64,000 bases of DNA from Candidatus Omnitrophota bacterium (lineage in GTDB: Bacteria > Omnitrophota > Omnitrophia > Omnitrophales > Aquincolibacteriaceae), in NCBI GenBank assembly GCA_022705945.1, contig JAKJDL010000003.1, positions 20,257-84,256 on the forward strand. Reading direction: 5' to 3'. Shown here in pieces: positions 45,583-64,000 of the stretch. A program made the position numbers and the translations under genes. The notes beneath the pieces were generated by a model, which was given only the letters and a program-made list of their open reading frames with translations, ran no database searches and was not told where the DNA came from. The first letter of the stretch is position 1. The number at the start of each line of letters is the position of its first letter.

Positions 45583-46605
45583 TCATGATTCTTTCAGCGC
45601 AGTATCCGGATCGGGATCGCCCGCCGGAAGAATCTTTTGATTCGGATCGAGCGTCTCACCCTCGTTCTCAAGAGCGCGCAAAAGATCCAGCAATTGAATA
45701 ACCTTGGTCCGTTCAACAAGAAAAACCGCGTCCCCCCCCTGCCGCTTGCCGTAATAAGCATTTTTAGCAGGTATCTCATTCCCGAAATTGAAGATTTCTT
45801 CCCCGAAATCGCCCGTCACCCGGATCAGGTCATGAATGATATAAAAACCCAATTCGGCATCAGACCTATCCTCCTGATCGATAAATTCCCTGACATGGAA
45901 TCCGGCCAGCGCCATAAAAACAAGATCCATCCTGTCCTTGGTCATCTCCTTGGCAAACCTCCTGAGAGGTTCGATCCAATACCATTTCCCGCCGTCGTTT
46001 TTCCATTCATAAGTATTCGGCCCCAACTCGATAAAAACCTTGGCGGCTTCGACCGGTTTGAATGTGAAGATGCGTTTATCCCTCAGTCGGTAGAGGCTTG
46101 CCTGGAAAGAAGCCTTTAGTTCCGGAGCGGCAAGAATATAACCTCGTTCACCCAGCCAGCGCGCGTAGACTGCCCGTCCCACGGGCGATTCGCCTCCGAA
46201 AACAAGCGCCCACTCTTTCTTCCGATCGGTCATGATCCTGACCTCAAGGTCAGCTTTTTCGAGGCCGTATTCATCCCAATCTTTTTCGGCACGGAGTCGT
46301 GTCTGTTTTGATGCAAATCGGGCTGCCATCGCAAGTCCTTCCGCCATGCCGGAATCCGCAGGATAATCAACGGGAGAAGATATCCTCCAGCCGTCCCCGG
46401 AACGTTCCAGGAGAATTTCCGATTCCCTGGTTTTGTCCTTGATCGCAATCCCGGTAATTCTTTCTTCCGGATCCAAAACAACATCGCGGCTCACCTCGTC
46501 CGGAGAGATGGAGAGGATCTCCTTGTCCAAACGCGTTTGATAAAGATAGATCGCGACAACCGCGATGAATAGCAGGAAAATAACTATCGTCCGGCCGGGC
46601 TTCAT
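45583..46605 (-). CDS. DUF4340-domain protein (auxiliary component of GldG-type ABC systems)
   Basis: N-terminal signal anchor, then WRISSPVDYPADS...EYGL repeats typical of DUF4340; fourth gene of the GldA/F/G-like module. Confidence 0.6.
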   Translation of the reverse strand: MKPGRTIVIFLLFIAVVAIYLYQTRLDKEILSISPDEVSRDVVLDPEERITGIAIKDKTRESEILLERSGDGWRISSPVDYPADSGMAEGLAMAARFASKQTRLRAEKDWDEYGLEKADLEVRIMTDRKKEWALVFGGESPVGRAVYARWLGERGYILAAPELKASFQASLYRLRDKRIFTFKPVEAAKVFIELGPNTYEWKNDGGKWYWIEPLRRFAKEMTKDRMDLVFMALAGFHVREFIDQEDRSDAELGFYIIHDLIRVTGDFGEEIFNFGNEIPAKNAYYGKRQGGDAVFLVERTKVIQLLDLLRALENEGETLDPNQKILPAGDPDPDTALKES

Positions 46606-48020
46606 GACGTGCGGGACCGAATTACGTGATAAAGACCGCCGACCACGAAAAATACCAGCGGATAGATCACAAGAACCGAAAAAACAAGCATCGTCCTCTT
46701 GGGAACATCGAGGAGTAGCGGCTTGAACTTGAACTGCGGTTTCTGGACCTCAACAAAACGGTCATCCTTGGCGAGCCACTGGAAAAGCCTTATCCCGAAC
46801 TCCTTGTTGCCCGAAAGGTTAAGATAACTGTTATTAAGAAAATCGCTGTCGCCCACGATGATCATCCGGCCCTGTTTTTGAGCATCGGATGATGGAGGGT
46901 GGATGGTGTCGGGTTTTGCGTCATCCGTCCCTCGCGGCCCGCCATCCGGCATTCTTTCAACAGCGACTGCGGCAGGAACGGGGCCGGCAATATCGGTTTT
47001 AATATCAAAGGTCGCGTTTCCCTCTTCAAGAGCGACAAGATCGGTTTCCGCCCAGCTCCCCGCCCCCGTCATCGCGAGAGGCGTCACTTCAAGACCGGGC
47101 ACCGGATCGGAAGAAGGCTGGATGCTTCTCAGAAGCGGGAAAAAAGTAGCCTGTTTCATCCCTTTCGAGACCGAATGCCGTGAAAAATACTGGCTCACGA
47201 GCGGCATCAGGAAATCACCCCCGACGATCCGGCTTGCCTTGTCCACAACCACATTGTCGCCGATCGTAACTCCGAACTTGGTCGCAAATTCCCGGAAAGA
47301 TTTTCCCGTCCCCGGATCCATGGGATCCAGAAGAAAAAGAATCCCCTTCCCGCGATCAAAAGCGCCCTCAAGGTCGCTGAACTCCTCCTGCGTGAGCTCC
47401 CACCGCGGCCCCGCAAGAGCTACGACCTGACAGACATCGGGGACGTGATCGCGCGAGAGAACGATCTCATGGGTTCTTGCGTTATACCCCTCAAGAGCGA
47501 GTTTGAACATTTCATAGTTCGTCGGCTCTGTCCCGTAAAGCTCAACCTCCCCGTGCCCTTTCACAAAACAGATATCGATACTTTGAGGATGCAGAATGCG
47601 CAAAATTGCGTTCGTGAAGCTTTCTTCCGTGGGTCTGATAATCCGCTGTTCGAGATCGCCCGACTGAATCAGCAGGGTCGAAGGCTCGGATATCTGGAAT
47701 TTCTTGGCAAGAGCGGGGCGCCGGCTCGGGTCGTAAAAGTGATAGCGGAAATCCGGATGATGCCGCCGACACTCTTTAAGGAATATCTCAAGGGCCCGTC
47801 TTGAATCATCTTCCTGCAGGTAAAAAGCGAGAACGTTCAAAGGCCGGGGCCGAAGCTCCCGCAGGATATTGGCCGTGGCCTTCGGCAACGAATAGACTTT
47901 TTCCTGGGTAAGATCCCATCGGTAGTCGCAGCGGTCGAGCAGGATCCCGACGATCACGAGCGTAAAAAAAAGAAGAACCGCTTCGAACACCAGCTGGAAT
48001 TTAAGAAGGGACTGTTTCAT
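46602..48020 (-). CDS. gldG: GldG-family ABC-transporter auxiliary protein (ABC_transp_aux)
   Basis: N-terminal TM, then RWDLTQEKVYSLPKATANILRELRPRPLNVLAFY and a C-terminal TM; matches the GldG architecture. Confidence 0.75.
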   Translation of the reverse strand: MKQSLLKFQLVFEAVLLFFTLVIVGILLDRCDYRWDLTQEKVYSLPKATANILRELRPRPLNVLAFYLQEDDSRRALEIFLKECRRHHPDFRYHFYDPSRRPALAKKFQISEPSTLLIQSGDLEQRIIRPTEESFTNAILRILHPQSIDICFVKGHGEVELYGTEPTNYEMFKLALEGYNARTHEIVLSRDHVPDVCQVVALAGPRWELTQEEFSDLEGAFDRGKGILFLLDPMDPGTGKSFREFATKFGVTIGDNVVVDKASRIVGGDFLMPLVSQYFSRHSVSKGMKQATFFPLLRSIQPSSDPVPGLEVTPLAMTGAGSWAETDLVALEEGNATFDIKTDIAGPVPAAVAVERMPDGGPRGTDDAKPDTIHPPSSDAQKQGRMIIVGDSDFLNNSYLNLSGNKEFGIRLFQWLAKDDRFVEVQKPQFKFKPLLLDVPKRTMLVFSVLVIYPLVFFVVGGLYHVIRSRTS

Positions 48021-48796
48021 ACATTCTTCCAGTTGCGGGTCTCAATGGACCTGAGAGAAAGAAAAAGAAAATAGAAAAAAAAGAATCCGAAATAAACGAG
48101 ATCCCGAAGATCCAGGATCCCGTAAGTGAGATTTCGGAAATGCTTGAGCGGAGACATCGCGCTGATTAAAAGCGGCCACCCGCCCCCTCCCGCCATCGGC
48201 GCAAGATCCATCATCCAGAAAATCACAAGAAGACCGAATGTCCCCATGGCGCTCATCACGGAACTTTTGGTCAGAGTGGAGATAAAGACACCCGCCGCGA
48301 GATAGGCCACGCCCAAAACCCAAAAACCGAGAAAGCCGGAAAGCACAGGCCCCCAGTCCACTTCCCCCCCGAGCAGATGAAAAACCAAGAAATACCCGGC
48401 CAGGGGAACAAGCAATATTTCAAAAAACCAGATCAGTCCGAGCAATTTCCCGGCGACGATTTCAAGATCGGACAAGGGGTAGGTGAAAAGAAGCTCAAGC
48501 GTTTCATGCTTTTTTTCCTCGGCAAAAGAGCGCATGGTCAGGAGGGGCACCAGAAAGAGAAGGATCACGTTCACGTTCAGAAAAAAAGATCCGAAGATGT
48601 AATGCGTCTGGCTGAGATCCGGAAAACTTGAAAAACCCGCTCCCCGCGGATCCATGGAAATCTTGGCATAGCTCAAAACCAGCATGACAAAAAAGATGCC
48701 GGTGATCAGAAAGAACATGACGCCCGTTAAAACACCCGTCCAGGAACGAAAAAAAGATGCGAATTCTTTCCTGGCAATCGCAAAGACTTTTTTCAT
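48017..48796 (-). CDS. ABC-2 family transporter permease (GldF-like)
   Basis: Six TM helices; start ATG 48796 overlaps the ATPase stop by ATGA (track ORF extends to 48820). Confidence 0.75.
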   Translation of the reverse strand: MKKVFAIARKEFASFFRSWTGVLTGVMFFLITGIFFVMLVLSYAKISMDPRGAGFSSFPDLSQTHYIFGSFFLNVNVILLFLVPLLTMRSFAEEKKHETLELLFTYPLSDLEIVAGKLLGLIWFFEILLVPLAGYFLVFHLLGGEVDWGPVLSGFLGFWVLGVAYLAAGVFISTLTKSSVMSAMGTFGLLVIFWMMDLAPMAGGGGWPLLISAMSPLKHFRNLTYGILDLRDLVYFGFFFFYFLFLSLRSIETRNWKNV

Positions 48797-49791
48797 CCGG
48801 ATTTCCCTCCCTGGAACCACCCGTCCTTGAGAAGCTTCAGAAATATCTCTTCGAGTGTCAGCTGGTCCCGGCTGACCTCAAGGAGCGGTATCGCGTTCCT
48901 GACGAACATCTCCGAAACTTCGGGTCTCAGGTCGCGCGACTGCGACGTTTCAAGGCAAAACTTGATCTCCTTCTCATGCCGCTCAACAACCCTCACGTTT
49001 TCAACTCCGCGGATCCCGGACAAAAGCCGTTCGGCGGGTTCCTCACAATCCGCTCCGCCGACGGTCACAAAAATCGCTTCGCGGTCCCTAAGACACGCCT
49101 CAAGTTCTCGCACGGTTCCGCTCGCAAGAACCTTTCCGTGATGAATCATAATCACCCGGTTGCAGACCATGGAAACTTCGGGAAGAATATGGGTGGAAAG
49201 AATCACCGCGCGCGTTTTTCCCAAATGACGTATTAATTCCCGGATTTCCGAAATCTGTTTGGGATCGAGCCCGGTTGTCGGCTCATCGAGAATCAACACG
49301 GAAGGATCCCCGACAAGCGCCTGGGCCAATCCGACTCGTTGCCGGTATCCTTTGGACAAGCGCCCGATCAACCGTTTCGAAACATCCCCGAGACCGCAAA
49401 GTTCGACTTTTTCCTCGATATGAGCCCCGCGGTCCCTCCGGGGAACCCCTTTGAGCTCCGATACAAACGCCAAATATTCCCGGACCCGCATATCCGGATA
49501 AAGATTAACAACCTCGGGAAGATAACCTATGTTGCGCTTGGTCTTCTGCGGCTCCTTGAAGAGATCCATTCCGTCAATTTTCACATGCCCCGCAGTCGGC
49601 GCAAAATAGCCGGCCAGAATGCGCATAGCCGTTGTTTTCCCCGCTCCGTTCGGCCCAAGAAAACCGACGACCTCCCCGCGCGCGATCTCAAAGGAAAGGT
49701 TCTCGACAGCGGGATGCCGACCGTAGGTCTTGGTGACACTCTCAAAGCGGACAAGACCTTCGGTGGATCTCGGTTTCCGTACGTTTAGCAT
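48793..49791 (-). CDS. ABC transporter ATP-binding protein (GldA-like)
   Basis: Walker A GPNGAGKTT, signature LSKGYRQRVGLAQAL, Walker B ILDEPTTGLD. Confidence 0.9.
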   Translation of the reverse strand: MLNVRKPRSTEGLVRFESVTKTYGRHPAVENLSFEIARGEVVGFLGPNGAGKTTAMRILAGYFAPTAGHVKIDGMDLFKEPQKTKRNIGYLPEVVNLYPDMRVREYLAFVSELKGVPRRDRGAHIEEKVELCGLGDVSKRLIGRLSKGYRQRVGLAQALVGDPSVLILDEPTTGLDPKQISEIRELIRHLGKTRAVILSTHILPEVSMVCNRVIMIHHGKVLASGTVRELEACLRDREAIFVTVGGADCEEPAERLLSGIRGVENVRVVERHEKEIKFCLETSQSRDLRPEVSEMFVRNAIPLLEVSRDQLTLEEIFLKLLKDGWFQGGKSG

Positions 49792-51155: not shown

Positions 51156-54100
51156 TTAAGCCGATCGTGCGATCAGGGACATCTTGACGAGCTCTGTCGC
51201 AAGTTCCGCGACATGGCTGATCACAAGCCCGTAAGTACCCTTTCTCTGCATTGCCATACCGTGATCTTGCATTTGTTTCAGAAGCGCTTCGGCGCTGGCG
51301 TCGGCAAACAATGTCAGCTGCACGGCAAATCCGGCAGCAATCAGTAGATCCTCATCCCCCATTCGCTCCCCGATCGCGACGTTCACGCCGCCCTCAAGCG
51401 ACGGAAGCAGCGCATCATCAAGGTGAATCGTCGCCATCCGGCCGTTCATCTGAGCAATGCGTCCGTTAAGCACAACCGCTTCGCTCTGGCCATCGCTGAT
51501 CGGATTCACTTTAAGGAACTTATCGAGGTCAGCGAGAACAGCGTTCCGTTCAGCAACGTTCGCGATGCCGGCTTTCCTGTTCTCGATCGCGATGCGGATC
51601 CGATCACGCAGCGACGCATCCCCCGAAGTTTCGAGCACCGGCGTCCCCCGGGGGGTATGTTTCCAAACATTGTGGAATGATCTCAGCAGAAGATAAAGCG
51701 CCCGCGGATTGTCCTTCAGGAGCCTTGAAAAAAGGCTTGATCCGGCATATACGACACCCCCCGCTTCAACATCGGCCCGATCATGAACGCGCGAAGATGT
51801 GATTGACTGGACCGTAGCTGACGGAATTTCCGGCAGGTCTTTCGCGGAAAAAATCGCGGAAAGAACTTCCGTTTCCGTCATTGCGGCATGGACGGTTCCG
51901 GGCACAGAAACCCCGGAAGCTTTGAGAAGTCTTATGAGCGCCTCTGTCCCGTTTTTAAGACTGTGCTCCAAACCATCCTGGACACGGATCGGAGCGATTC
52001 CGAAATAATATTCGCGAATCAACACCAAAACCTCGGCACTTACCAGTCTTCGAAGATTCATCTGATCCGGACTCGCAGTCACAGCCGCCCGCGCTTCGGA
52101 ACGGGATGCGGAAGTTTTTTCAGTAGGTATTTGCTTAATCCCCGCCGCGATCCGCAAAAGTTCAGCCTCTTGCGGGCTTAGGTGAAATTGCTTGACGATC
52201 GTATTAAACGTCTCTTGTACATCAGTATCCGCCGCGGCAGAAGAAGGGTCCAGAAAATCCAGAGCCTGGGACAACTGAGGTATCCCGCGGGGGATCCTGG
52301 ACTTCACAAGCTCGAAAACCTTCTTGCGCTCGCCCTTTTGACGCTCCAGCCGCGCCCGCTCAAACCCAGCCCTGCGGACGGCTAACGACCTCTCGAAATC
52401 CATCGCCCGCTCGGACAAAGCCTGCTCCTGCTGCGCGGCGATCTCCTTCAACTCGGCAGCATTCCTCTTCTTCTGGGTCTCCGTCTCCGCCGCGAAATCG
52501 CGACGCAACTTTGCCACTTCAGCAAGCAGCGCAGCCTCCTCGCCATCCTGGTCTTTCGCGAAAATCTTGAGTTCATTTTGGAGCGCTTGTTCGACCGACA
52601 CCCGAACACCTTCGAGCACTTGTTTCCACTGACCGGCGAGCCAGGTGCTCAAAGCATCCGCCTCGGTCTGCCTCCATTTCTTCTTGGCCTCGATCTTCGC
52701 GGCATCGCCATTAAGCTCGTTCCACACGGCACGCTCAATGTCGTTCAGGAGGTCATTCCGCATCACGGTAAAATTGGTCAGCGGAACAGGCTGACCGTGC
52801 CACAGGTCCACACCGGAGAGCACAGTAGCGCTGTAATACGGCATAGCTCTCCTACGGATCACTTTGGCCATGGGGACATCTTCCCCCCGCAGCGCCTTTT
52901 GCAGCGTCGATAGGCCGACGACATCCACATTCACCGGAAGCCCGGGTATGACGCGTTTAATTTTCGAGGACAACTTCTCCGCGCTCACCCGTTCAAACGC
53001 GCGGTCTCCCGCGACCACCACGATCAGATCCAGATCATTCGGTGTTTCTTTCCAGACATAACTCCCCATCACCGACAACTCCACCAGGGGCTCGACCTGA
53101 GATATCAGCTTGCTCTCATAAAGAGCAGCTATTATCGCCGTAATCTTGGCTTTGAGCCGAGCAATGCGTTCCGTGATCTTTGTCGCCGCCGACGGATCGG
53201 ACTTGGTCAAATGCGGCCACAGCCAGCTCCTCGACATCAGTCTCGCTACCGATTCACGGGCATCGGACACGATCAAACCGTCCTGGTTCGGATCAAAGGA
53301 CGGGATCTTGAAATCCCAGAAAGTGACGTCTGCCGCGAAGGGCTTGATGATCACTTCCAGCTTGCCGCCAACCTTGGGTCGGGCGGGCTTCGGCAGTCGC
53401 GTCACGGGCACTTCAACCCCCATAGCATTTCTCGAACGGATATTGAATATATCAAGGTGTGGAGCCTTATCCGTCACGGAATAGGAACCACTCTCATTTC
53501 CGTAGATATCATAGGTGGTCTCCTCATGCGTTTCCTCGGGTTCTTCCCTATAATCCGCAAGCAATGATTCCCCCCGCATATAGGCGGTCTGGATGCCTGC
53601 GACCTCATCATCGCTTAAAACTTTGTAGGTTCTGCTGTGTCCTCCAATCCAGTCAAAATAGCGCCTCAATTCTTTAAGTGATACGCCCGGGCCGGAGGCA
53701 ACCATCAACGAAAGGATCCCCGCGGCAAGGCGATGACTATCCTCACCAAATCTTTCCCTCAGACACTGCAAAAGCGCCGGAATCGCCATGGGATCTTTCC
53801 ATTCGCGAAAAACTCTCAGGATCGATTTATAGACGGAATCGGAGCGGGCATCGTTGTATAATTCGGCAATCAACGCGGAAAGCAGGCTTCTATCGCCGAT
53901 CTCGCCGATCGCATCGACCGCAAGAGCACAAACGTTGTCCCGCGGGTCCCCCAACAGTTCTATCAGCGCGTCAACGGCCTTGAAGTGCCTTAAAGCCCCG
54001 ACGAGCGATTTACTTGCTTGTTGTTGACGTTTCTGGTTTTTCGCTTCCCGGATGATTGCCGGCAGGGCCTTGCCCGCATTAAGGGATGCGCCGAGAGCCG

Positions 54101-57100
54101 CTGCCGCAAGCGCACAAACATTGTCCCGAGGATCCCCCAGCAGCTCGATCAAGCCATCGACCTCTTTGAGCTGGACCAGCGCCTTCACCAGCACCTCGGC
54201 CGCAGCCGGTTTACGCTTGATGTTCCTCGATTCCTGGAGTAGCGCAGCAACGGATCTTTTATCTCCCACCTCTAGCAATTCCGCGGTAACCGCGATGCAA
54301 ACACCGTCATCGACATCTTTAAGAGCTTTTATCAGCGCGTCGACCGATCGTGCGTCCTTGTATTCGGCTAGCGCACCAGCAAGCCGCTTCCTCAGTTCAA
54401 CGTGCGGACTGGCGACGAGCCGTTCCGCGAACACCTCCGCGACTCGCGGGGATTTTATTGAGGCGAGTACCTCAGCCGCCATGCTGGCGACATCCACTTG
54501 GGCATGGGATAAGAGCGGGATCACCAATTCGATGGATGCGGGATCCCTTAAACGGACCAAAGCCATTTTCGCTTCTTGATCCACTCTCGATCCATGGTAA
54601 GAGGAATACCGGTTATCTTCCAGCGCACGGACCAGCGCCGGGACCACTTTGGGATGATTCATCCCGCCCAAGGCCCGAACGGCGGCGCAGGAGAGAGGGA
54701 CATCTATATCCCTTTGCATCAGCGATATCAGCGGGTCAACGGCTCGAGGATCTTTTATTTCCCCAAGCGTCTTGATCGCGGCGATCCGGCGATCTCCGCC
54801 GCTACCATTATGGTTACCATCCCACCACTTCGGCTGGATGTCGCGAAGGACTTTCTGGAATTGCCTTTCCTGTTCAGGTGTCAGACGGGTTTCGGAACGC
54901 AGCGTTGACTGCGCCACCTTAACATTTCCCGCTCGAATGCGCAGCGCCGCTTGGGCAACATTCTCCGGAACTGCACCGGCGCCCGGTAAAATCCAGTTGC
55001 CCTTGATGGCTCCTTTCGGGTTATCCGGATCAAGACGTTCGATCTGGCCAAGCGCATGGTCAATCCAGAAATCGAGCTCCGCAGGATCCGTTTCCGGCCC
55101 CGTAACGGGAAGCTCGGGAGCATAGCTGTAGAAATCGACCTTGGTGTCCCAGTTGAACTGCTTTTCAAAAATGAGCCGGGAAAGGTGCATGCCGGTGGGC
55201 ATTTGAACCAAAATAGCGTTGGAGATCTTGGCGCCCTGCCGCTTCAAAAGGGCGGCACTAAACTCCGCATTCTGACCCGTGTGCATGGAATCCGCTTCGA
55301 TATCAAAAGGAACGGAAAGTCCCCCTTGTCCATTTCCAAACCCGAGGTCTGTAAGGTCCTTCGTGATAAGTTTGCTGAGCGTAACAGCCTCGGCAACCGC
55401 GCCGGGCCCCTTACCGGAAGCAAGAATGCGCTTGGGTTTGTATTTGAGAAAAGCCTCTACGGCAGCCTTGGCCGTCACTTCCAGTTTAGGATTTCCAAGA
55501 ACAATTAGGACGTCCGGATTCTGCGGTGCATTCTGATCTCGTTCCGCCAAAAATCCAAACACCGTCCCGACATCCGACGCTTGTCCCGTTTGCCCGGCTG
55601 TCTCCGTTTTGCGAGCTTCGGAGCGCGGGGTCAGGACATCAAGCACTTCCACGGTAACGCTTGCGCCGACGGGATTGAAGCTGCGGCCCCACGCCGTTCT
55701 GCCAAAATGGAATGTGATCCCGCTCATACCGGCAGGAATAGTCACGATCACATCGGTGTTACCGGAATAAGGCCCCTTCTTCCAAGACGGGTTATCACCG
55801 GGCCCGCTGATATAAAATCGCGCATCACCCGACGTTACGATATGCAGGCCCTTGCCTCCAAGGCCGCTCCCGGTGGAAGCAGACGCCCAGGTGTAGGAGT
55901 TCCCGCCATTCACCAACGTGTTGCCGTTCACCTTCGCGTCACCATAAGCGCTCCAGCCGCCGAGCACACTCCGTGCACTACCCATATCATAATTCTCCGA
56001 AGAAGGCTTCGTATCCGCCGAAGAATCGCGTTTCGGCTTTTCAGGGCGGGTGGCCACGGGAGTTGTCGCGGTCGGTGTAATATCGTCTTCGCTGTCCTTC
56101 TCTTCGCGCACTATGCCGTTAGCTTTTGTCACTGCAAATTGACTTGCCCGAGATTCGGAACGCCTTTTCACCTCACGCGCGGCCTCATGCGAAACAGCTT
56201 TCAAAATCAAATTCCTCTCTTTTTCAAAAAAGGCCTCAGCATCCTCACCGTTCAGCCCGGTTGCCGCTTGAAAGGTTTCAAGAATTTGTCCGGCAACATC
56301 AAAATAGTCCTGTCCCATTGCGTCGAGCGTTTTTCTCCCCTGCAACGCGGCCCAAAGCAGGTTGGTGTCTGCGGTCACATTCTTGACAAGATCCTGAGCG
56401 ATCCGCGAAGCCAGCGCATCAGCATCCACCCGTGATTCCGACCGCGGGGTCAGGACATCAAGCGCTTCCACGGTAACATGCGCTCCTTGCGGATTAAGCG
56501 GCTCCCCCCAGGCTTCGGCGCCAAAGTGAACCGTCACGTCAACCGCATCGGCCGGAAGGTCAAGAATCATGTCGGAATTCGCGGGGAAAGGTCCCATTTT
56601 CCAGGAGGGATTCGGGCCGGATCCGCTGATGTAATAATCCGCGGTCCCGGAAGTCACGACATGCAGCCCCTTGCCAGCAATACTCACAACAGGAACCGTT
56701 ACAGCCGATGCCCACCTCATCGTATTTCTTGCGTTAATCAGTGTGTTCCCCAAAACATCCGCATCACCCCACCACGACGTCCAGTTCCCGAGAATGCTCT
56801 GCGCGGAATCCATATCGTATTTCCCGGGTTCTTCGGTAAGGTTCACCCGATCAATCACCTTCACGCGATAGAAACGCTGTCCGGGAAGCTCGCCGCCCGT
56901 AAAACTTCCGTCATCGGTCCAAGATAGACTGTTAACGTCTGAAAAAATTCCTCTCTGCGCAATCTCCCAGTCTCCTTGCGTGAGGCTGTCACGATAGTCG
57001 ACCTGATAAATAAACCCGGGCTGGGTTTTAAAAGTGACTTTGAAATTGCCGTTTTCCTGTTTAAGGCCGCGAATCACGGGCGTTTCAACCGGAACAGGAA

Positions 57101-60100
57101 TCTCATATCTCCCTGCGTTCGGATCGATCGTATTTGCCAGGTTCACGGTTGCCGTGATCGGGTCCGTTGTCGAGGTTTCGGCCAGAACCCCTGTTCCCTT
57201 CTTCACGATCATCGCCCAACTATTCGCCGGAGCCGTACGAATCTCATTACTCCCCAAGTCTTCGAGCGCTTGATAGATCGATTCGCTTAAAGCGGGATTT
57301 ATATTCAAGCCGCTATTGTCAGCGACTCCAATCAGTACGACCGAACCATTTGGGATGGCGTTCAAGTAATCAGCTACCCCTTGTCTAAAAGCGGCATCGT
57401 ACTGATTTGCCCATGTATCAAAATGCTTGAATTCTTTGAACCGTATGCCGGTTTTTTCATCTAGGATCGCAATATTGACCCCCCGGGCGCCACCACCATC
57501 CACACCCTTACGGAACAAGACGGTCTTGCCATTAAGTTCAAACTTCACCGAACCACCGGAAGTTATCTGCATCACGGGATTCGTCACAAGCGGGATCGCG
57601 TTCTGCCCGTCAAGTGAGAAGCGCTGCTGAACCGCGTAATAGGCCGGTCTCGGATTGCGATAAATATCAAGAAGCCCAAAGTACTCTTCGTCATTATGTC
57701 CGTCCGGTTGGCCCCCGTTTTGCTCCCAACTGGGCGCCTGCGTCATGGGGTAACCATTTTTGTGCCACTCGTCGTTCCATTCAAAATAAAGTCCCCCGGA
57801 GATCACTCCATTCGTACGTGAGGAAGCAAGATTGAAAATGATCTCATCCCAGAGACCGCGATTGAAATCAGCCTGCACCTGTTCATCCACTCCGCTCGCA
57901 TAATGGCTATAGGCATCGGCCCCAAACTCACTGACGAATGCCGGACGGGTAGTAACTTTGGACCATTGCGAAAAGGCATCCCCAAAACTCCAGCCGCGGT
58001 AAAGCTGCAATCCAAAAACATGGACGCTCGGAAGATCAGCAACAATATCAGCGGTTTGAATACCACCGTCCAAGGTTTCTGGCGCATAATGATAGGGGCT
58101 TCCGAAGTACCACTGAACGATATGCGGATCCGCCATGAAAGTGATGACCACATGGTTCGTGTCCAGGCCTTTGACGATCTGGGCCGCCCGCTCTGTGTAT
58201 TCAACGGAATCCTGGAGAGTCGTAAAGGTGTTGTAGTAATAGTTGATATCCCATTCGTTCCCGATCCCCCATCCGAGGATCGCGGGATGGTTTTTAAAAG
58301 TGTTCACAACGCCGGTAATATTATTGGTCCTTGCGATCTGGCCGTAAAAAGGTGAATCGACCGGCATAATGACCTTGATCCCATGCTTGTAAAACTGGTC
58401 CAGAAGCGCAACCGCCTGCGCGTTGGTTCCCGGATCATAGTAGGGCCGGATCACATTGGCGCCCATCGCCGCCATCATGGGAATGTCATTCGTCGACCAC
58501 TTGAACATTTCCTGGCGATAGACAAGCGGATACCACTGCGGATCGATTCCCGGGGAGGTGGGACCCCAGTTAGCGCCTTTGATGGTCAACGCGTAAGGAG
58601 TTCCCAGCGTTCCGTCCGGTTTCCGCTCCTCGACGAAAATCCGGCGGTCCCCTTCTTTCGTATAGGTCACAGTCGGAAGATTGGGCACACCGAAAGTCTG
58701 CGCTACCACATCCCTCGCGGCAAGCAGAAACGCCGCAACTCCGGCAAGCATCGTCAAAAAAACCGAAGATGAAATACTAAAAACTGAAACCCTGCGATCC
58801 GAATCTTTTGCCGGGGACCGTCCTTTGCGCACCTCCGAGCGGACGGGAACAATCCTTATAATCTCCGGTCGCAAAACCTTCCATACTTGATGCGCTTCCA
58901 CTTTGGTGGTGTTAGTGAACTCGTATTCATCCCCCTCAGCTTCCGAAGGCGGACTGTGGCCTCTCGGCAACATGAACGTACTACTTTCCACAGTTGCTTT
59001 TTCGGGAACTTTCATCCATTCGCCTTCTTCGGGGAAATAATCGATCCGGAACGGTTGATTCATCTGCAAAGCATCCGGAAGAAGATGCAAAACGAGGTAG
59101 CTCAAATGAAGATTTTTAACATAATCAGACGGGGGAATATAAGAAACGGTGATCAACTTCTCCTGCTCGAGAAAATTATATACCAAGAACTGTTCGCTCT
59201 CTTTTCTTTCGTACAAACTGATCTTCTCCAGAGCTTCGCTCGGAATCAGTTCTTTCAATTGTTCGATCGCCCGAAGAATACCGGGGGCAGCGAGATGGGA
59301 AGAATGCATCAAATAATGAACCAACCCATCCAGATCATTCCCCCGGATAAAACGGCGAACATTCACCCAGAAATCAGCCCAGAAATAAACCCAGAAATAA
59401 GCCGGGAAATGAGCCCGGAAATAAGCCCCTCGGAAATGCCGGAAAACTAAAACCAAGATTCCGAATCCGGCCAATGTGACAAAACCGACTAGAGCATCTC
59501 CCATATCTAAACGCACACTGGCAGCGGCATTGGCTAAAAGACTCGTTGGGTCGATTGTAACACCTGCTGCGCCGACAGCATGCGCAATAGCGGGCACCGA
59601 AAAAACAAATTCATGCATTCGGGCTTCCGAGCGGGATTTGTAATCATCAAGCTGTTTTTTGTAACGCGTCACGCGATCCTGCGCTTCGGCCTCCTGTTTT
59701 TTCAGGATCTCCAGACGCCTGGATTCATTAGACCTCGGATTCCGTAATTTTGTTGGGTCCCGCTCTAGCCTCCGGATCTCGTTCCCAATCACGTCAAGAT
59801 CCGACTGCGCGCGACGCAGAAGGGCCTCCAGCCACTCCCCGTCTGCGTCATAAGAGGTCTTCACCGTTTCGCCGCGAGTTTCAGAGCGGGGTGAGGCGGA
59901 GCCGTTCCCCGAACTTTGCAATGCGGTATAAAGAATCCCCAACGGGCCCGAAAGCATAGGATAGTGCCCTGCGACGGAAGTTTCGTGATCAGGGAAGCGG
60001 CCCCAGGGGTTTGGAGCGGTCAGGGTCGCGTGAATAGCACGAATACGCTCAACCACCCATAACTTTTGCAAATCTTCAAATACGCTTCCTCGCCATTCGT

Positions 60101-63100
60101 CAACATCCCCAAGGTCGCCCAGGAGATTAAGAACCGCCTCATGGGCCGCAATCTTGCCGGCAACCGACTTGTCATCCCCCAATGTAATTTCAAAAATGCT
60201 TTGCTCCCCAGTCCGGACCTCAAGCGTCCAGATGGCGGTATACTCCTTCAAATAAAGACTCAACGTCCCAAGCGAAGCGATCCGCTCCTCCCCCACAAAC
60301 TTTTTCAAAAAATAGCGACCACTCTCCTTGACAAGAGCGACATCCTGGAACTTTTCACGCGCCAGCCCCGGCCAGCCTGCCGGTATGTGCCGAGACTGAG
60401 TCGCCCGCGCTTCGGCGCGAGGTTTGGCGGCAAAAATGTCCAGATTAACACGCACCCGGGGAGCATCCTTGTGGGCATTCGCGATCGTCACCCCAGCGCC
60501 GTTGTCCATTCTCACATGGTCGCGAGCCGCCTGATAGTTCGCAAGAACAATCGGTCCCCGGCGGTCAAACACAAGACGGATCCTCTCATCGAGAATACTG
60601 GGAGACCCTTGGGACAGAAGGATTTCCAGGCTCTCCAGAAACTCCCTCCCCCATCTTTCCCAGGAAACATGTTCCACCACAAAACCGGAATATACCGGAT
60701 CTTCATGCATGGCGGCTTCGATCTTTTTACGCACCGCACCGGTCGCTAAAGGATAAAGTTTTTCCGGATCTAACCTTGCATTGCGGACCACCCTCAAAAC
60801 ATGTCCGGCAATGACCGCGATTATTCCCGCAGCCGCCCCAAATACACCCGTTAGCCTCGGGAACACCCCCCTCCCGGTTGCAGCGCCTTCCACTCGTGCT
60901 TCGGAGCGGAGTGAGGCGGTTACACCCTGTTCCTCACGGATGGCCTCCAATATCCTCTTCCTCTCCTGGTAAAGAGAACGGAGACTGGATCGTATGGATT
61001 CCAAAGTTTTTTCGATCTCCGGAAGCCTGCGGGGAGCATCAGCCAGCGCTTCAGGCGTCAAACCGTAATGTCTTGTTCGTAAACGATTCCGTTCACCAAT
61101 AAGTTGAAACTCCTGCTCCTGCAATCGCCAAATATCATCCTGGACGGTATCCCAGCGGCGAGATGTGTCCACCGGCACAGCATCCGACGCTTGTCCCGTT
61201 TGCCCGGCTGTCTCCGTTTTGCGAGCTTCGGAGCGGACACTCGATGTCGCGATACCGGCCGCTTTCTTGAGACGGACGGCAAGGTCCTGGGTGGCTTTGA
61301 GATCGTGTTTCACGACAGTCTGCGCCGCGCGATAAACCATCAGGGCTAACTTCTGCGGATCAATGCCGTAGGAAGTGCCTTCGGGAGCGGAAAAAACCTT
61401 CGGATCGGAAAGAAAAACCGATTCGTATGTGGATTTTAAAACCGGAGCTGGAGACTCATGGCCGGGGACCCGTTTTCGTCCTTCGTTCTGTTGAGCCCCG
61501 GGTTGCGAGGTTCGAGCCCTGGTCCGCAAGATGTGAGCGATATAGGCCCGATGCCCTTCCTCATCCACCCCGCTGATAAGCGGTGAAATGAGCGCGTAGG
61601 TATAATTCCTGGACGCAAAATAATCCTTGAAGGGCTGTGAGTGGAAACCTCCCGTAATAACCGCCGCTTTCCGGACCCCGGTCTCACGGAGGCGTTTTTC
61701 GACCTTTTCGATCATCGCAAGATCACGCGCTTTGACTCCCGAATAAAATTCCATCGCGGAATCATAGAGCGCATCCAACTCCGCCAAATGATCGAATTGC
61801 ACGTTTTTGATCTTGCGGATACCGGATTGGGGACGGAGGATAGCGCTTTCAAACCTGCGGGCAATACCTGAGGGGCTCAAGCTCCCTTCGTCTTCCGTCG
61901 TTCGCCGACCGATTTTTTCATAATCATCAGCCGTCAATTCCAGCGAAAACAGTTTCTGCAGGAGCCGATAATCCCTGAGCATGCCGACGATCTTCTTTTC
62001 CGTCTCGGTCTTCGCGAGTTTTTCGGCAATCATGTCCGTGAGTTTTGAAACCTCACCCATGAGACGGTCTGCCTTAAGCTCGCTCGATAAAAGCAGCGTC
62101 CCGATAAAATACCGGACATTCGGGAAAGCGGCATAATTGAAATCCTTCGGAAGGAGTCTGACCATATCCTCAAAAAGTAAGCTTGTTTCGGGATCGGGAA
62201 GCTGCCGGCTCATCGAATCATTTCGAAGCAATGATTCGACCGAGGACACAAGACCGCCGGACCGTAAAGCCGCGGGCTCATGGCTTGCGGCATGTGCCGT
62301 GCGGTGTGTGTCTTGTGGAATAAAACGCCGAAGAGCTTTGAGAAATTCATCCCGTTCTTTTTCAAAAGCTTTCCCGTTAAACTGCTGATGCAGTTTTTTC
62401 AATTTGAAAAAACGCACCATCATCGGCCATTGAATTTGAAGCGCGGCGTTTCGGAGGTCCATTTTGAGGGATCTTTCCGATTCCTCTCCGAGACAGGATA
62501 ACCAGGCGTCAAACGGCATGAGCTTCTTTTCAAAGGAATCTTCGGAACGGAGAAATTTCCGGAGATTGTCGTTCAAATAATGACTGGAGAGCCGGCTGAT
62601 CCCTTCATCCATATTTCTGAGGAACCGGGATGACTTTTCCTTTTGATTCAGTACAGTCACAAAGGATTCACCGTTCGCCCGATAGGTTCCGATGTCTTCG
62701 ATTCCCAGCGCTCTCGGCAAAGGGGTCCGCGGCGATCCGGCGGAAAATCGGTTTGCGTTTTTCTGCAGTTTGTCCAGCAAATAGAGTTCGGGTCCCTTTA
62801 CGATTGCGTGCTTCGTAAGCTCATCCGCCACACTTTGCGTCAGTTTGGGATTGCCGGGAAAAAAATTCAAAATGTCCGGATCAAGTTCGTAAGCGCTGCC
62901 TTCCACGAACACTGTCTGGACCCCGTGATTTTCATCCAGATAATGAAGTATCTCGCGGATTTTCTGCTGAGCTTCATAATGCCCGTGAGCGGTCTGGATA
63001 TGAATGATGCTGGCACCTTGTCCCGTGCGGATATCCTCGACCTTTCCGAGATTTTGAGGAAGCGCGAGCTTCAGACTTGAATCAAGCGCCACCTGGTAAG

Positions 63101-63263
63101 GGAGCCTGGTTTCAGCAATTGACGGCATCGACGCGGCACCGAAAGACACTCCGGGCGTCCAGATCGTGGTGGCAATGAAAGCAACCAGAGTGACAAGGGC
63201 GGTAACAGACTTACTTTTGCGGAAGGACAAACTGGAAACATTTGCACTGTGGTTGCTGTCCAT
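51156..63263 (-). CDS. Giant (4035 aa) multi-domain secreted/membrane-anchored protein of unknown function. Domains are itemised in the findings: signal anchor, TraB/GumN/Tiki-like, GH-A glycoside hydrolase, ILEI/PANDER-like, tandem-duplicated unknown domain, DUF218-like, HEAT repeats, minimal nucleotidyltransferase motif, coiled coils.
   Basis: Uninterrupted 12,108-nt reading frame on the minus strand. N-terminal MDSNHSANVSSLSFRKSKSVTALVTLVAFIATTIWTPGVSFGAAS signal anchor. Internal domains were recognised by motif: GNEW/SEFG for the glycoside hydrolase, GS...DLDLIVVVAGD for the nucleotidyltransferase, HEAT/PBS-lyase repeats. Nine RSE[ATSV]R motifs. The AT-rich 380-bp upstream region and a terminator-like hairpin downstream suggest a monocistronic unit. 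Confidence 0.85.
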   Translation of the reverse strand: MDSNHSANVSSLSFRKSKSVTALVTLVAFIATTIWTPGVSFGAASMPSIAETRLPYQVALDSSLKLALPQNLGKVEDIRTGQGASIIHIQTAHGHYEAQQKIREILHYLDENHGVQTVFVEGSAYELDPDILNFFPGNPKLTQSVADELTKHAIVKGPELYLLDKLQKNANRFSAGSPRTPLPRALGIEDIGTYRANGESFVTVLNQKEKSSRFLRNMDEGISRLSSHYLNDNLRKFLRSEDSFEKKLMPFDAWLSCLGEESERSLKMDLRNAALQIQWPMMVRFFKLKKLHQQFNGKAFEKERDEFLKALRRFIPQDTHRTAHAASHEPAALRSGGLVSSVESLLRNDSMSRQLPDPETSLLFEDMVRLLPKDFNYAAFPNVRYFIGTLLLSSELKADRLMGEVSKLTDMIAEKLAKTETEKKIVGMLRDYRLLQKLFSLELTADDYEKIGRRTTEDEGSLSPSGIARRFESAILRPQSGIRKIKNVQFDHLAELDALYDSAMEFYSGVKARDLAMIEKVEKRLRETGVRKAAVITGGFHSQPFKDYFASRNYTYALISPLISGVDEEGHRAYIAHILRTRARTSQPGAQQNEGRKRVPGHESPAPVLKSTYESVFLSDPKVFSAPEGTSYGIDPQKLALMVYRAAQTVVKHDLKATQDLAVRLKKAAGIATSSVRSEARKTETAGQTGQASDAVPVDTSRRWDTVQDDIWRLQEQEFQLIGERNRLRTRHYGLTPEALADAPRRLPEIEKTLESIRSSLRSLYQERKRILEAIREEQGVTASLRSEARVEGAATGRGVFPRLTGVFGAAAGIIAVIAGHVLRVVRNARLDPEKLYPLATGAVRKKIEAAMHEDPVYSGFVVEHVSWERWGREFLESLEILLSQGSPSILDERIRLVFDRRGPIVLANYQAARDHVRMDNGAGVTIANAHKDAPRVRVNLDIFAAKPRAEARATQSRHIPAGWPGLAREKFQDVALVKESGRYFLKKFVGEERIASLGTLSLYLKEYTAIWTLEVRTGEQSIFEITLGDDKSVAGKIAAHEAVLNLLGDLGDVDEWRGSVFEDLQKLWVVERIRAIHATLTAPNPWGRFPDHETSVAGHYPMLSGPLGILYTALQSSGNGSASPRSETRGETVKTSYDADGEWLEALLRRAQSDLDVIGNEIRRLERDPTKLRNPRSNESRRLEILKKQEAEAQDRVTRYKKQLDDYKSRSEARMHEFVFSVPAIAHAVGAAGVTIDPTSLLANAAASVRLDMGDALVGFVTLAGFGILVLVFRHFRGAYFRAHFPAYFWVYFWADFWVNVRRFIRGNDLDGLVHYLMHSSHLAAPGILRAIEQLKELIPSEALEKISLYERKESEQFLVYNFLEQEKLITVSYIPPSDYVKNLHLSYLVLHLLPDALQMNQPFRIDYFPEEGEWMKVPEKATVESSTFMLPRGHSPPSEAEGDEYEFTNTTKVEAHQVWKVLRPEIIRIVPVRSEVRKGRSPAKDSDRRVSVFSISSSVFLTMLAGVAAFLLAARDVVAQTFGVPNLPTVTYTKEGDRRIFVEERKPDGTLGTPYALTIKGANWGPTSPGIDPQWYPLVYRQEMFKWSTNDIPMMAAMGANVIRPYYDPGTNAQAVALLDQFYKHGIKVIMPVDSPFYGQIARTNNITGVVNTFKNHPAILGWGIGNEWDINYYYNTFTTLQDSVEYTERAAQIVKGLDTNHVVITFMADPHIVQWYFGSPYHYAPETLDGGIQTADIVADLPSVHVFGLQLYRGWSFGDAFSQWSKVTTRPAFVSEFGADAYSHYASGVDEQVQADFNRGLWDEIIFNLASSRTNGVISGGLYFEWNDEWHKNGYPMTQAPSWEQNGGQPDGHNDEEYFGLLDIYRNPRPAYYAVQQRFSLDGQNAIPLVTNPVMQITSGGSVKFELNGKTVLFRKGVDGGGARGVNIAILDEKTGIRFKEFKHFDTWANQYDAAFRQGVADYLNAIPNGSVVLIGVADNSGLNINPALSESIYQALEDLGSNEIRTAPANSWAMIVKKGTGVLAETSTTDPITATVNLANTIDPNAGRYEIPVPVETPVIRGLKQENGNFKVTFKTQPGFIYQVDYRDSLTQGDWEIAQRGIFSDVNSLSWTDDGSFTGGELPGQRFYRVKVIDRVNLTEEPGKYDMDSAQSILGNWTSWWGDADVLGNTLINARNTMRWASAVTVPVVSIAGKGLHVVTSGTADYYISGSGPNPSWKMGPFPANSDMILDLPADAVDVTVHFGAEAWGEPLNPQGAHVTVEALDVLTPRSESRVDADALASRIAQDLVKNVTADTNLLWAALQGRKTLDAMGQDYFDVAGQILETFQAATGLNGEDAEAFFEKERNLILKAVSHEAAREVKRRSESRASQFAVTKANGIVREEKDSEDDITPTATTPVATRPEKPKRDSSADTKPSSENYDMGSARSVLGGWSAYGDAKVNGNTLVNGGNSYTWASASTGSGLGGKGLHIVTSGDARFYISGPGDNPSWKKGPYSGNTDVIVTIPAGMSGITFHFGRTAWGRSFNPVGASVTVEVLDVLTPRSEARKTETAGQTGQASDVGTVFGFLAERDQNAPQNPDVLIVLGNPKLEVTAKAAVEAFLKYKPKRILASGKGPGAVAEAVTLSKLITKDLTDLGFGNGQGGLSVPFDIEADSMHTGQNAEFSAALLKRQGAKISNAILVQMPTGMHLSRLIFEKQFNWDTKVDFYSYAPELPVTGPETDPAELDFWIDHALGQIERLDPDNPKGAIKGNWILPGAGAVPENVAQAALRIRAGNVKVAQSTLRSETRLTPEQERQFQKVLRDIQPKWWDGNHNGSGGDRRIAAIKTLGEIKDPRAVDPLISLMQRDIDVPLSCAAVRALGGMNHPKVVPALVRALEDNRYSSYHGSRVDQEAKMALVRLRDPASIELVIPLLSHAQVDVASMAAEVLASIKSPRVAEVFAERLVASPHVELRKRLAGALAEYKDARSVDALIKALKDVDDGVCIAVTAELLEVGDKRSVAALLQESRNIKRKPAAAEVLVKALVQLKEVDGLIELLGDPRDNVCALAAAALGASLNAGKALPAIIREAKNQKRQQQASKSLVGALRHFKAVDALIELLGDPRDNVCALAVDAIGEIGDRSLLSALIAELYNDARSDSVYKSILRVFREWKDPMAIPALLQCLRERFGEDSHRLAAGILSLMVASGPGVSLKELRRYFDWIGGHSRTYKVLSDDEVAGIQTAYMRGESLLADYREEPEETHEETTYDIYGNESGSYSVTDKAPHLDIFNIRSRNAMGVEVPVTRLPKPARPKVGGKLEVIIKPFAADVTFWDFKIPSFDPNQDGLIVSDARESVARLMSRSWLWPHLTKSDPSAATKITERIARLKAKITAIIAALYESKLISQVEPLVELSVMGSYVWKETPNDLDLIVVVAGDRAFERVSAEKLSSKIKRVIPGLPVNVDVVGLSTLQKALRGEDVPMAKVIRRRAMPYYSATVLSGVDLWHGQPVPLTNFTVMRNDLLNDIERAVWNELNGDAAKIEAKKKWRQTEADALSTWLAGQWKQVLEGVRVSVEQALQNELKIFAKDQDGEEAALLAEVAKLRRDFAAETETQKKRNAAELKEIAAQQEQALSERAMDFERSLAVRRAGFERARLERQKGERKKVFELVKSRIPRGIPQLSQALDFLDPSSAAADTDVQETFNTIVKQFHLSPQEAELLRIAAGIKQIPTEKTSASRSEARAAVTASPDQMNLRRLVSAEVLVLIREYYFGIAPIRVQDGLEHSLKNGTEALIRLLKASGVSVPGTVHAAMTETEVLSAIFSAKDLPEIPSATVQSITSSRVHDRADVEAGGVVYAGSSLFSRLLKDNPRALYLLLRSFHNVWKHTPRGTPVLETSGDASLRDRIRIAIENRKAGIANVAERNAVLADLDKFLKVNPISDGQSEAVVLNGRIAQMNGRMATIHLDDALLPSLEGGVNVAIGERMGDEDLLIAAGFAVQLTLFADASAEALLKQMQDHGMAMQRKGTYGLVISHVAELATELVKMSLIARSA
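55571..55625. repeat. 55-bp exact intragenic direct repeat, copy 1 (partner at 61182..61236)
   Basis: CATCCGACGCTTGTCCCGTTTGCCCGGCTGTCTCCGTTTTGCGAGCTTCGGAGCG is identical at both sites and encodes RSEARKTETAGQTGQASD on the minus strand. Confidence 0.9.
59366..59447. repeat. Intragenic 12-bp tandem repeat (about 5-6 units) encoding aromatic tetrapeptide repeats A-[Y/H/D]-F-[R/P/W]
   Basis: CCCAGAAATCAG/CCCAGAAATAAA/CCCAGAAATAAG/CCGGGAAATGAG/CCCGGAAATAAG... read on the minus strand as AYFR-AHFP-AYFW-VYFW-ADFW, next to predicted TM helices. Confidence 0.85.
61182..61236. repeat. 55-bp exact intragenic direct repeat, copy 2 (partner at 55571..55625)
   Basis: Same 55-mer as 55571..55625, about 5.6 kb away within the same ORF. 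Confidence 0.9.
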
Positions 63264-63646
63264 AATAGTCGGTTTAGACCTTTCTTTTCAGTAGATTTGG
63301 AAAGCTTCTTTTTTAGAGAATAAAAAACTCATTTAATCTGTTTATTTTACGCCTTTAGAAAGTCTCCGAAAATATAGCTGACACCTTTTATATTTACAAG
63401 AGCAGAGGAAGGAATTTTTTATATTTTTTGAAAGCTTTTATCGAAAAATCGCAGAAAACAACGAAGTGTTTAAGCGATCCCCTATCGAAAACAAATTATA
63501 ACAATTTATAACTTGAGGACTAACTCCGGATAGCATACACAGAATTCAAACCGTGGATTTTTAATCAAACTGGATTTAAACCGGGGCAAATGCGGAAAAT
63601 TTTAATTGCTCCTGCTCCGGTCCAGAGATAGCGTGGAACGAAAAAA
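63264..63646 (-). promoter_or_regulatory. AT-rich 380-bp intergenic region upstream of the giant gene (presumed promoter/5' UTR)
   Basis: Base composition is visibly far more AT-rich than the flanking coding DNA (runs such as TTTTTTAGAGAATAAAAAACTCATTTAATCTGTTTATTTTAC). No ORF; lies between the lpxA 3' end and the giant-gene start. Confidence 0.4.
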
Positions 63647-64000
63647 TCAGAGGACCCCGGAAGATCCTTCCGCTTCAACCGAATCAGCAGCCTGATTCTT
63701 CCGGTGCGCGATGGTGTCGGAGACCGCACCGCTTCCGTCAATGATTCCCCGTTTTGACTCTTCGATAAATTTCACGAAGTGATTGATCTCGGGGCTTTGG
63801 AGGGATTTTTTTATCGCGCAAATCGCCTGAGTCGTGTTGAGCCCGGAACGGTACAGCAAACGGTATGCTTCCTTGATCTCCGCGCGTGTTTTCGGCCCGA
63901 TCCCCGCACGGCGCATCCCGACCACATTGATCCCTTGCGCAACACCGGGCCGTCCGCCACAGATCACAAAAGGCGGGATGTCTTTATTGAATGCCGAGAG
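63647..64000 (-). CDS. lpxA: Acyl-ACP--UDP-N-acetylglucosamine O-acyltransferase LpxA, C-terminal part (5' end beyond the window)
   Basis: C-terminal helical domain IKEAYRLLYRSGLNTTQAICAIKKSLQSPEINHFVKFIEESKRGII matches the LpxA C-terminus. The reading frame stays open to the window end (…LSAFNKDIPPFVICGGRPGVAQGINVVGMRRAGI). Confidence 0.8.
   Translation of the reverse strand, partial: LSAFNKDIPPFVICGGRPGVAQGINVVGMRRAGIGPKTRAEIKEAYRLLYRSGLNTTQAICAIKKSLQSPEINHFVKFIEESKRGIIDGSGAVSDTIAHRKNQAADSVEAEGSSGVL

Follow-up and report, generated by a model that had tools for sequence, protein, structure and literature searches.

How is a bacterial protein of 4,035 amino acids, built of gene-sized modules, put to use by the cell that makes it? 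The question is raised by a gene on the minus strand, at positions 51156–63263, of a 64,000-nucleotide stretch of DNA (the window) from a Candidatus Omnitrophota bacterium. The listing of open reading frames (ORFs) and the translation give a single frame from an ATG start through 4035 codons to a stop, uninterrupted, as an earlier note on this DNA had claimed. Giant ORFs are a hallmark of the Omnitrophota, in which they take up a large share of small genomes, and their function and maturation are open questions. Post-translational cleavage of the giants has been proposed; according to the main paper on them the cleavage points are unknown, which blocks analysis. Here we describe a pentapeptide, R-S-E-x-R, that recurs between the modules of this protein and within its many relatives, and we weigh the reading that it marks sites at which the chain is cut.

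A Pentapeptide Recurs between the Modules

The earlier note had picked out an RSEAR peptide in the protein. The peptide is present, but it is not the single copy it was taken for: R-S-E-x-R occurs 10 times, against 0.088 occurrences expected from composition and a maximum of two in 2000 shuffles. The copies are RSEAR at amino acid (aa) 677 (61221–61235), which is the site nearest the N-terminal "head" domain; RSEAR at 786 (60894–60908), which is followed by a transmembrane (TM) segment centered near aa 809; RSETR at 1126 (59874–59888); RSEAR at 1211 (59619–59633); RSEVR at 1475 (58827–58841), directly before an internal signal peptide; RSESR at 2274 (56430–56444) and at 2368 (56148–56162); RSEAR at 2547 (55611–55625); RSETR at 2789 (54885–54899); and RSEAR at 3721 (52089–52103), directly before the C-terminal "tail." One extra variant, RAEAR, lies at aa 949 (60405–60419). 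All of the R-S-E-x-R copies fall between recognizable modules and outside every Pfam match. Because their codons differ from copy to copy, selection acts mainly on the peptide. The sole other in-frame copy in the window, an RSETR in the neighboring tyrosyl-tRNA synthetase (TyrRS), we take to be a chance occurrence.

Two of the copies have more than the peptide in common. The first and the eighth each start one arm of a 66-nt direct repeat (61170–61235 and 55560–55625, 94% identical) that covers RSEAR and the next 17 codons and encodes RSEARKTETAGQTGQASD. The repeat is a motif-plus-linker unit that has been copied within the gene.

A Large Family with Constant Ends

An alignment of seven head sequences was used to fetch genomic loci (L001–L080), and a head profile was run against 1.8 billion representatives (those retrieved carry P labels; the window protein is WIN). 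All 80 loci come from Omnitrophota metagenome-assembled genomes, often several per genome, and the TyrRS flanking the window gene is 79.5% identical to that of L001, so the pointer in the earlier note to this phylum is borne out. At almost all of the loci a very long ORF begins with the head, and the majority of these ORFs extend past the 10-kb flank. The profile found 8,136 proteins at E ≤ 1e-3, of which 2,633 remain at E ≤ 1e-30; the family defined by the N-terminal domain of 530 aa thus has no fewer than 8,136 cluster representatives. Among the matches listed, lengths reach 7,823 aa, and in all N-terminally intact members the head starts no more than about 110 residues from the N-terminus, mostly at 40–75. 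The first 680 aa of the window protein match only partial Omnitrophota proteins, and those carry RSExR too. The family is seen here in Omnitrophota only, and we found no description of it in the literature. No record of the giant turned up when its exact sequence was looked up. Term searches of the published work on Omnitrophota giants (PMC10066038; bioRxiv 10.1101/2023.11.21.568195 and 10.64898/2026.06.07.730766) turned up neither a TIKI-like head nor a cleavage motif, and no passage that they brought up describes a conserved tail. A literature search for Omnitroph* with polyprotein gave nothing relevant, and one for "RSEAR" gave unrelated words only.

The other end of the protein is conserved as well. 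The earlier note listed an unknown C-terminal domain; it is real, and it is common to the family. The tail (aa 3726–4035; 51159–52088) is an alpha/beta domain that ends in ...LIARSA-COOH, as does that of L001. From the last motif onward (aa 3721–4035) it is homologous to the extreme C-termini of P0023, P0033, P0041, P0027, P0011, P0021, P0034 and L001, and a motif stands before it in six out of seven aligned members that extend far enough upstream. The last residue is Ala in 99 of 145 representatives, and the last two are AA or SA in 83 of them; in most members the free C-terminus has the pattern hydrophobic-x-x-[A/S]-A. It seems that the conserved end is recognized by something, perhaps by a PDZ-type protease or as an export signal. 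A Pfam scan of the tail gave no match, and a word-indexed search with the tail alone returned no homologs, its relatives having come by way of the head-profile representatives. Some members lie in tandem: the upstream ORF ends in the ...[A/S]-A tail, and a few hundred bases on the following member begins with its signal peptide and head (L005:2-3010, L025:2-9565, L052:3-9443, L058:2-9643, L064:1-9609 and L050:50-2935). The window protein belongs to this family: it has the signal peptide and head, R-x-E-x-R after the GGFH of the head and between modules, and the tail.

The motif is a property of the family at large. The fetched loci (79) contain 396 RSExR in 193 kaa (thousand amino acids) against 4.5 expected, and 145 independent representatives contain 744 against 9.9, an enrichment of about 80-fold across the family. 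The flanking ORFs hold 22 in 146 kaa, about three quarters of them in long neighboring ORFs, six of which end in the ...[A/S]-A tail. The logo reads R-S-E-[V/A/L/M/I]-R with flanks of essentially no information, and the spacing between motifs has a median of 203 aa (interquartile range 117–364). RSExR is the sole enriched pattern that recurs within proteins, the other top patterns being single-copy motifs of the head. Downstream of GGFH, R-x-E-x-R is found in 93% of 205 members, at a median distance of 116 aa (10% by chance); the RSEAR that lies 136 aa after H541 in the window protein is within the family range of about 75–170 aa.

Members that are poor in RSExR use RAExR, RTExR or RPExR instead; there are 17 RAExR in each of P0033 and P0149, 16 RTExR in P0062, 10 RAExR in L007 and 6 RAEVR in L023. 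Since the second position changes with the lineage among S, A, T and P, it is the R, E and R that are fixed. For the same reason the Ser is neither a nucleophile nor the target of a modification, as would suit a recognition site; self-cleavage through the Ser, and modification of it, are ruled out by whole lineages that have Ala, Thr or Pro at that position.

The Motif Bounds Exchangeable Modules

Outside the head there is little homology among the giants: a BLAST comparison of the 79 locus giants and the window protein gave 125 high-scoring segment pairs. The starts of 41% of these lie within 3 aa of a motif, as compared with 4% at random, and 14% of them span a motif, as compared with 42% when placed at random. 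Blocks common to L004, L011, L015, P0011 and P0013 begin exactly at RSETR 2789; the 89-aa module 2279–2367 matches modules of L008 (721–805) and P0012 that are also bounded by motifs; and the adjacent pieces 822–968 and 970–1132 match P0023 at 815–961 and 4342–4513, respectively.

The order lpxA–giant–tyrS–ABC transporter is common to the window, L020 and L038, and L001 shares at least giant–tyrS–ABC. The giants of the window and L001 are 4035 and 2943 aa long, their heads are 56% and their tails 30% identical, and their middles are unrelated. Such divergence between syntenic close relatives, together with the 66-nt repeat, indicates that the locus is a fast-evolving cassette array between stable ends. 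The mosaic that the earlier note read from N- to C-terminus stands as far as its modules are concerned, but their combination is not a trait of the family: the middle is a hypervariable string of cassettes.

One cassette is, as judged by its homologs, a complete stand-alone secreted pre-protein, signal peptide included. It occupies aa 1480–2145 (56829–58826) and consists of a signal peptide (58698–58826), a clan GH-A glycoside hydrolase (GH) TIM barrel (aa 1523–1915; 57519–58697), an ILEI domain (57195–57485) and a C-terminal putative beta-sandwich. Both enzyme and lectin-like calls had been made before and are borne out. The hydrolase matches Glyco_hydro_2_C with 25.2 bits (cut-off 21) when the segment is scanned alone, it matches a GH158 structure in the PDB at 3.7e-4, and its GNEWD and SEFGAD motifs are invariant in the homolog alignment; the ILEI domain (PF15711) scores 57.1 bits (cut-off 27, E = 2.6e-15) and matches FAM3C in the PDB. 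The best homologs of the segment are ordinary proteins of about 650 aa with GH2_C/GH72 and ILEI (55–59% identity, 99–100% coverage), one of which sits in an ordinary operon of normal-size genes. The alignment runs end to end over aa 1480–2145. In it the internal signal-peptide-like stretch of the giant, which comes right behind RSEVR 1475, is matched by the initiator Met and signal peptide of these proteins, VAQT|FG by their signal-peptidase-like sites (AYA|G, SYA|G) and ...FYRVKVIDRV by their C-termini. A GH+ILEI cassette also directly follows the head in the giant P0063 (615–1341, 42% identity). Across the family, there are 67 instances of a hydrophobic segment in the 45 aa that follow a motif, as against 33 ± 5.6 in permutations (maximum 51).

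The Head Resembles the TIKI/TraB Superfamily

The head (aa ~60–575; 61539–63086) was called TIKI/TraB-like in the earlier note. It shows the xTxH...E(+28)...GxxH pattern of the TIKI/TraB/PrgY/GumN/erythromycin esterase (Ere)/ChaN superfamily, and the residues H93 (QTAH), E121, R513-D514 and H541 (GGFH) are conserved wherever aligned homologs cover them. The spacing between H93 and E121 is exactly 28 residues; this spacing and the His/Glu/His pattern have been described for Bcr135 and the endopeptidase RRSP (PMC6254334). Across the family the signal peptide is followed by the signatures HIQxAH, EG, PDPET, RD and TGGFH, all of which the window protein has. The call is thus upheld by pattern and spacing, and with the His/Glu/His set intact the head is a putative hydrolase, whether peptidase or esterase. 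It differs from the superfamily in that a helical insertion of about 330 aa splits the fold and in that it is always the N-terminal part of a giant chain.

An AF2 model of aa 45–600 (pLDDT 80, pTM 0.71) gives the head a predicted alpha/beta core fold that is shared with solved TIKI/TraB/GumN/Ere/ChaN members. Foldseek found no significant PDB match to the model, probably because of the insertion. Nor did the head give an above-threshold match to Pfam and NCBIfam models, and the head and tail profiles gave no match to PDB sequences. With the insertion removed, Cofac_haem_bdg (ChaN-type) alone appeared, below threshold (E 0.03–0.13), for three of six sequences. As an aside, the head of P0001 (L009:3458-4369) carries in-frame heptamer/palindromic DNA repeats, (GTACGGA)n with a complementary TACGCCG arm, that translate to EYGVRSTA...TPYAFRRT in loop regions and look like small hairpin-forming insertions tolerated in frame.

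Is the Giant a Polyprotein?

The arrangement suggests that R-S-E-Φ-R (Φ, hydrophobic or small) may be an endoproteolytic processing site and the protein a polyprotein, a reading that we prefer to its rivals and regard as evenly balanced between right and wrong. In an extended strand, three charged residues at i, i+2 and i+4 lie on one face, as they do in protease substrates, and the sites would be recognized in that conformation through the alternating Arg, Glu and Arg side chains. Cutting would detach the head and release the modules. Some of these would use their own signal peptide or anchor, as would here the secreted clan GH-A glycosidase with its ILEI lectin-like domain, and others (DUF218, the HEAT scaffold and the nucleotidyltransferase [NTase]-like module) would act as separate proteins. 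If processing does take place, we lean slightly toward the head as the protease, in that no other enzyme-like part is universal and some members of its superfamily (Tiki and RRSP) are site-specific endopeptidases. The content of the modules and the Omnitrophota literature point to a role as rapidly diversifying glycan-active and accessory proteins of the envelope or of prey surfaces.

Several points weigh against this reading. Cleavage is deduced from sequence. Some members have few motifs (four in the 3,940 aa of L067) or none (P0071), so the family cannot require cleavage throughout. The head, which follows a signal peptide, is expected outside the cytoplasm, whereas sites that precede internal signal peptides, or that flank HEAT and NTase modules lacking an export signal, should be cytoplasmic; one exported protease could not easily reach them all. 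The TIKI/TraB superfamily also includes esterases and a haem binder. Finally, the first Arg of the motif is CGY in 84% of 394 motifs (background 45%) and AGR in 3% (background 22%), and TCN makes up 93% of the Ser codons (background 68%). At the Glu (GAA/GAG) and at the Arg in fifth position (all six codons, 29% AGR), codon use is like background. The bias hints at an extra constraint at the nucleotide level, or at one left by common descent.

A wider form of the processing reading, which we put forward tentatively and with some doubt, would make R-[S/A/T]-E-Φ-R the cleavage code that has been missing for one major class of giants in the Omnitrophota. These would be true polyproteins, cut by an N-terminal TIKI-type protease, with the tail and its ...[A/S]-A end as a second recognition handle.

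The foremost rival is that the giant is never cut but stays anchored in the membrane, with R-S-E-x-R as an inter-module linker, docking element or charged hinge. We think this rather improbable, though it has precedent: PMC10066038 discusses giants of the phylum as intact cell-surface "coats" and reports the detection of peptides from one of them. Internal TM segments and members with few motifs would also suit an uncut chain, and the sequence data do not show cleavage. A pure linker, however, needs no three invariant charged residues, set in flanks that are not conserved, across thousands of diverged proteins. Nor is it easily squared with modules that are gene-sized and shuffled as units, with a roughly 2-fold enrichment of signal- or anchor-like segments just downstream of motifs, or with a motif that is immediately followed by an entire embedded pre-protein, which has its own signal peptide and signal-peptidase-like site.

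Alternatively, the polyprotein might be cut by a separate protease acting in trans, probably in the cytoplasm, and the head would have another role, for example as an esterase or peptidase with substrates in prey or envelope. This would remove the conflict between an exported head and sites that are probably cytoplasmic, and it agrees with the presence of non-proteases in the TIKI superfamily; the neighbors are housekeeping genes, and no conserved protease gene need lie nearby. We nonetheless judge it unlikely. No candidate protease was identified, and the near-universal motif about 116 aa after the head, together with the way in which head and motif strictly accompany each other within a chain, is most simply explained by the head acting on its own chain.

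Much less probable still is that the conserved element is the nucleic acid, as a site of mRNA processing or a hot spot at which cassettes are exchanged by recombination, with the peptide as a by-product. The codon bias at the first two positions (CGY and TCN), the start of the 66-nt near-identical repeat exactly at the motif and the shuffling of cassettes at motif boundaries could all be so explained. Against it stand the background-like codons of the Glu and the fifth-position Arg, the varying third codon positions and a fourth position at which the class of residue (V, A, L, M, I), rather than the sequence, is constrained.

That several genes were falsely fused in assembly or annotation can practically be dismissed, even for an uncultivated organism whose assembly was judged from sequence: the ORF is too long to be a chance event and runs from a family-typical signal peptide and head to the family tail and ...SA-COOH, intact giants of the same plan occur in many independent assemblies, and positional orthologues lie between lpxA and tyrS. 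The earlier note had proposed to look for homologs split into several genes; the homologs, too, are intact giants. A role in defense was also considered and ruled out, PADLOC giving a generic HEAT match only.

If processing is real, the Omnitrophota would have bacterial polyproteins in which complete stand-alone secreted enzymes have been captured in one reading frame. If, further, the motif is the general cleavage code, this would be a form of gene organization and expression, operon-like strings in one chain, not known at such scale in any cellular organism. The enrichment of the motif at gene-sized, shuffled modules turns the question of cleavage into a concrete hypothesis, to which are added a family defined by a head profile (>8,000 cluster representatives) and a candidate protease with named catalytic residues. 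The motif also gives a rule for cutting the giants into units for structure prediction and annotation.

Layout of the Gene and Its Surroundings

The remaining parts of the protein, all encoded on the minus strand, are as follows. A Sec-type signal peptide or anchor (aa 1–44; RKSK, hydrophobic core, SFGA/AS; 63132–63263) opens the chain, as had been called, and all homologs have one. After the first motif come a linker and putative coiled coil (aa 682–785; 60909–61220); a module with a TM segment and a domain without fold assignment (aa 791–1125; 59889–60893), which includes the RAEAR variant; and a short module (aa 1131–1210; 59634–59873) with a weak match at aa 1146–1205 to the coiled-coil family DUF7491. 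The fifth module (aa 1216–1474; 58842–59618) has a hydrophobic or TM segment at about 1257–1275, an aromatic repeat, FRAHFPAYFWVYFWADFW, and a domain without fold assignment; a faint match to the bacterial Ig-like family Big_14 (E = 0.16) lies at 58980–59080, or about aa 1395–1428.

Downstream of the embedded pre-protein, the tandem domain of about 125 aa in the earlier note, also without fold assignment, is indeed present in two copies, 58% identical. The first (56445–56822) ends in LDVLTP before the sixth motif, and the second, with a low-complexity linker, makes up the module at aa 2373–2546 (55626–56147); the 89-aa module (aa 2279–2367; 56163–56429) lies between them. The next module (aa 2552–2788; 54900–55610) is DUF218/YdcF-like and of the size of a stand-alone DUF218 protein; PF02698 scores 29.9 bits (cut-off 27.6) with the module scanned alone and 24.1 bits in the full-length scan. 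The last module before the tail (aa 2794–3720; 52104–54884) contains HEAT repeats (53895–54788; HEAT_2, E = 2e-30 in Pfam), a weak NTP_transf_2-like segment (52896–53087; MGS..DLD) and a putative coiled coil. Most of these calls agree with the earlier note. Its nucleotidyltransferase fared less well: PF01909 stays below its cut-off of 21 bits with a score of 13.1 (E = 0.13), and MGSYVWKETPNDLDL fits hG[GS]...DxD by eye.

The view that the gene is a stand-alone transcription unit is also supported. An AT-rich spacer of about 385 bp (63264–63649), probably the promoter region, separates it from lpxA, and just past the stop there is a terminator-like hairpin (51136–51097) with a 17-bp stem, 9 of whose pairs are GC, and a T-rich tail. 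The G+C content along the gene is unremarkable. Its neighbors are housekeeping genes: lpxA upstream (a C-terminal fragment, 63650–64000), and tyrS, a GldA/F/G-like ABC transporter, proC, ileS and others downstream. The ABC-2 transporter set (45583–49791; ABC_tran, ABC2_membrane, ABC_transp_aux and DUF4340) lies beyond tyrS, and its ATPase is syntenic with L001, L020 and L038. An lpxA gene is found upstream of the giant in 19 loci (for example, L008, L014, L020 and L038); it has the same direction as the giant here and is divergent in nearly all of the others. The conserved neighbors of the family loci are housekeeping genes only, and among them no dedicated partner gene was found.

Comparison with Known Systems

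Searches of Pfam/NCBIfam, PDB and PADLOC turned up no characterized family with the domain combination of the window protein, in keeping with the earlier note; nor, among the classes it had named, was there a match to an RHS, MARTX or adhesin protein, and the Pfam/NCBIfam and PADLOC scans found no RHS/YD repeats or known toxin tips. The nearest relatives in kind are other giants of the same phylum, namely the giant proteins of Seymour et al. (2023; PMC10066038), the Archaeovorin and Dockerin-type giants of West-Roberts et al. (2023; bioRxiv 10.1101/2023.11.21.568195) and the long "multi-enzyme cluster" proteins of Nielsen and Lui (2026; bioRxiv 10.64898/2026.06.07.730766). Common to them and to the window protein are ORFs of great length in which unrelated enzyme and HEAT domains follow one another, a signal peptide and a few TM segments, poorly conserved middles and a suspicion of cleavage. 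The Archaeovorin and Dockerin-type giants differ in exceeding 10–30 kaa, whereas the window protein has 4 kaa and, in the Pfam scan, no dockerin/TSP3, C39, S8 or SecA domains. Its locus has lpxA, tyrS and a GldG-type ABC transporter in place of a type II secretion-like locus upstream and pilZ with sugar import downstream.

Large surface proteins of bacteria can be processed polyproteins. Gingipain and HagA of Porphyromonas and the P97/P102 adhesins of Mycoplasma hyopneumoniae, which are cut at S/T-X-F|X-D/E, are examples. They resemble what is proposed here in being cut at short motifs, or after Arg or Lys, into functional fragments. They differ in having far fewer modules, homologous to one another, and in lacking a universal head or tail and gene-sized heterologous enzyme cassettes.

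MARTX toxins have conserved ends and variable, recombining effector cassettes, and they are processed between the cassettes at Leu-X sites that are cut by a cysteine protease domain. The window protein likewise has conserved ends, exchangeable cassettes and inter-cassette sites. Its domain and neighbor scans revealed no RtxA repeats, no C80 cysteine protease domain and no adjacent type I secretion genes, and it has an N-terminal Sec signal peptide and a fixed pentapeptide, rather than a Leu-X site, as its separator. The likeness extends to the fold of the head, for the MARTX effector RRSP is a site-specific endopeptidase with a TIKI fold (PMC6254334).

The polyproteins of viruses offer the second parallel. 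Those of flaviviruses and picornaviruses contain complete proteins in one product, together with short cleavage sites, an encoded protease and internal signal peptides. In the giant, too, complete proteins appear to be joined in one long product with short sequence-defined sites, at which cutting would take place, a candidate protease in the chain and internal signal peptides. The giants, by contrast, are cellular and chromosomal, with dozens of paralogues across genomes and hypervariable content. In its way of working the window protein would come closest to MARTX toxins or viral polyproteins, while being a member of neither group.

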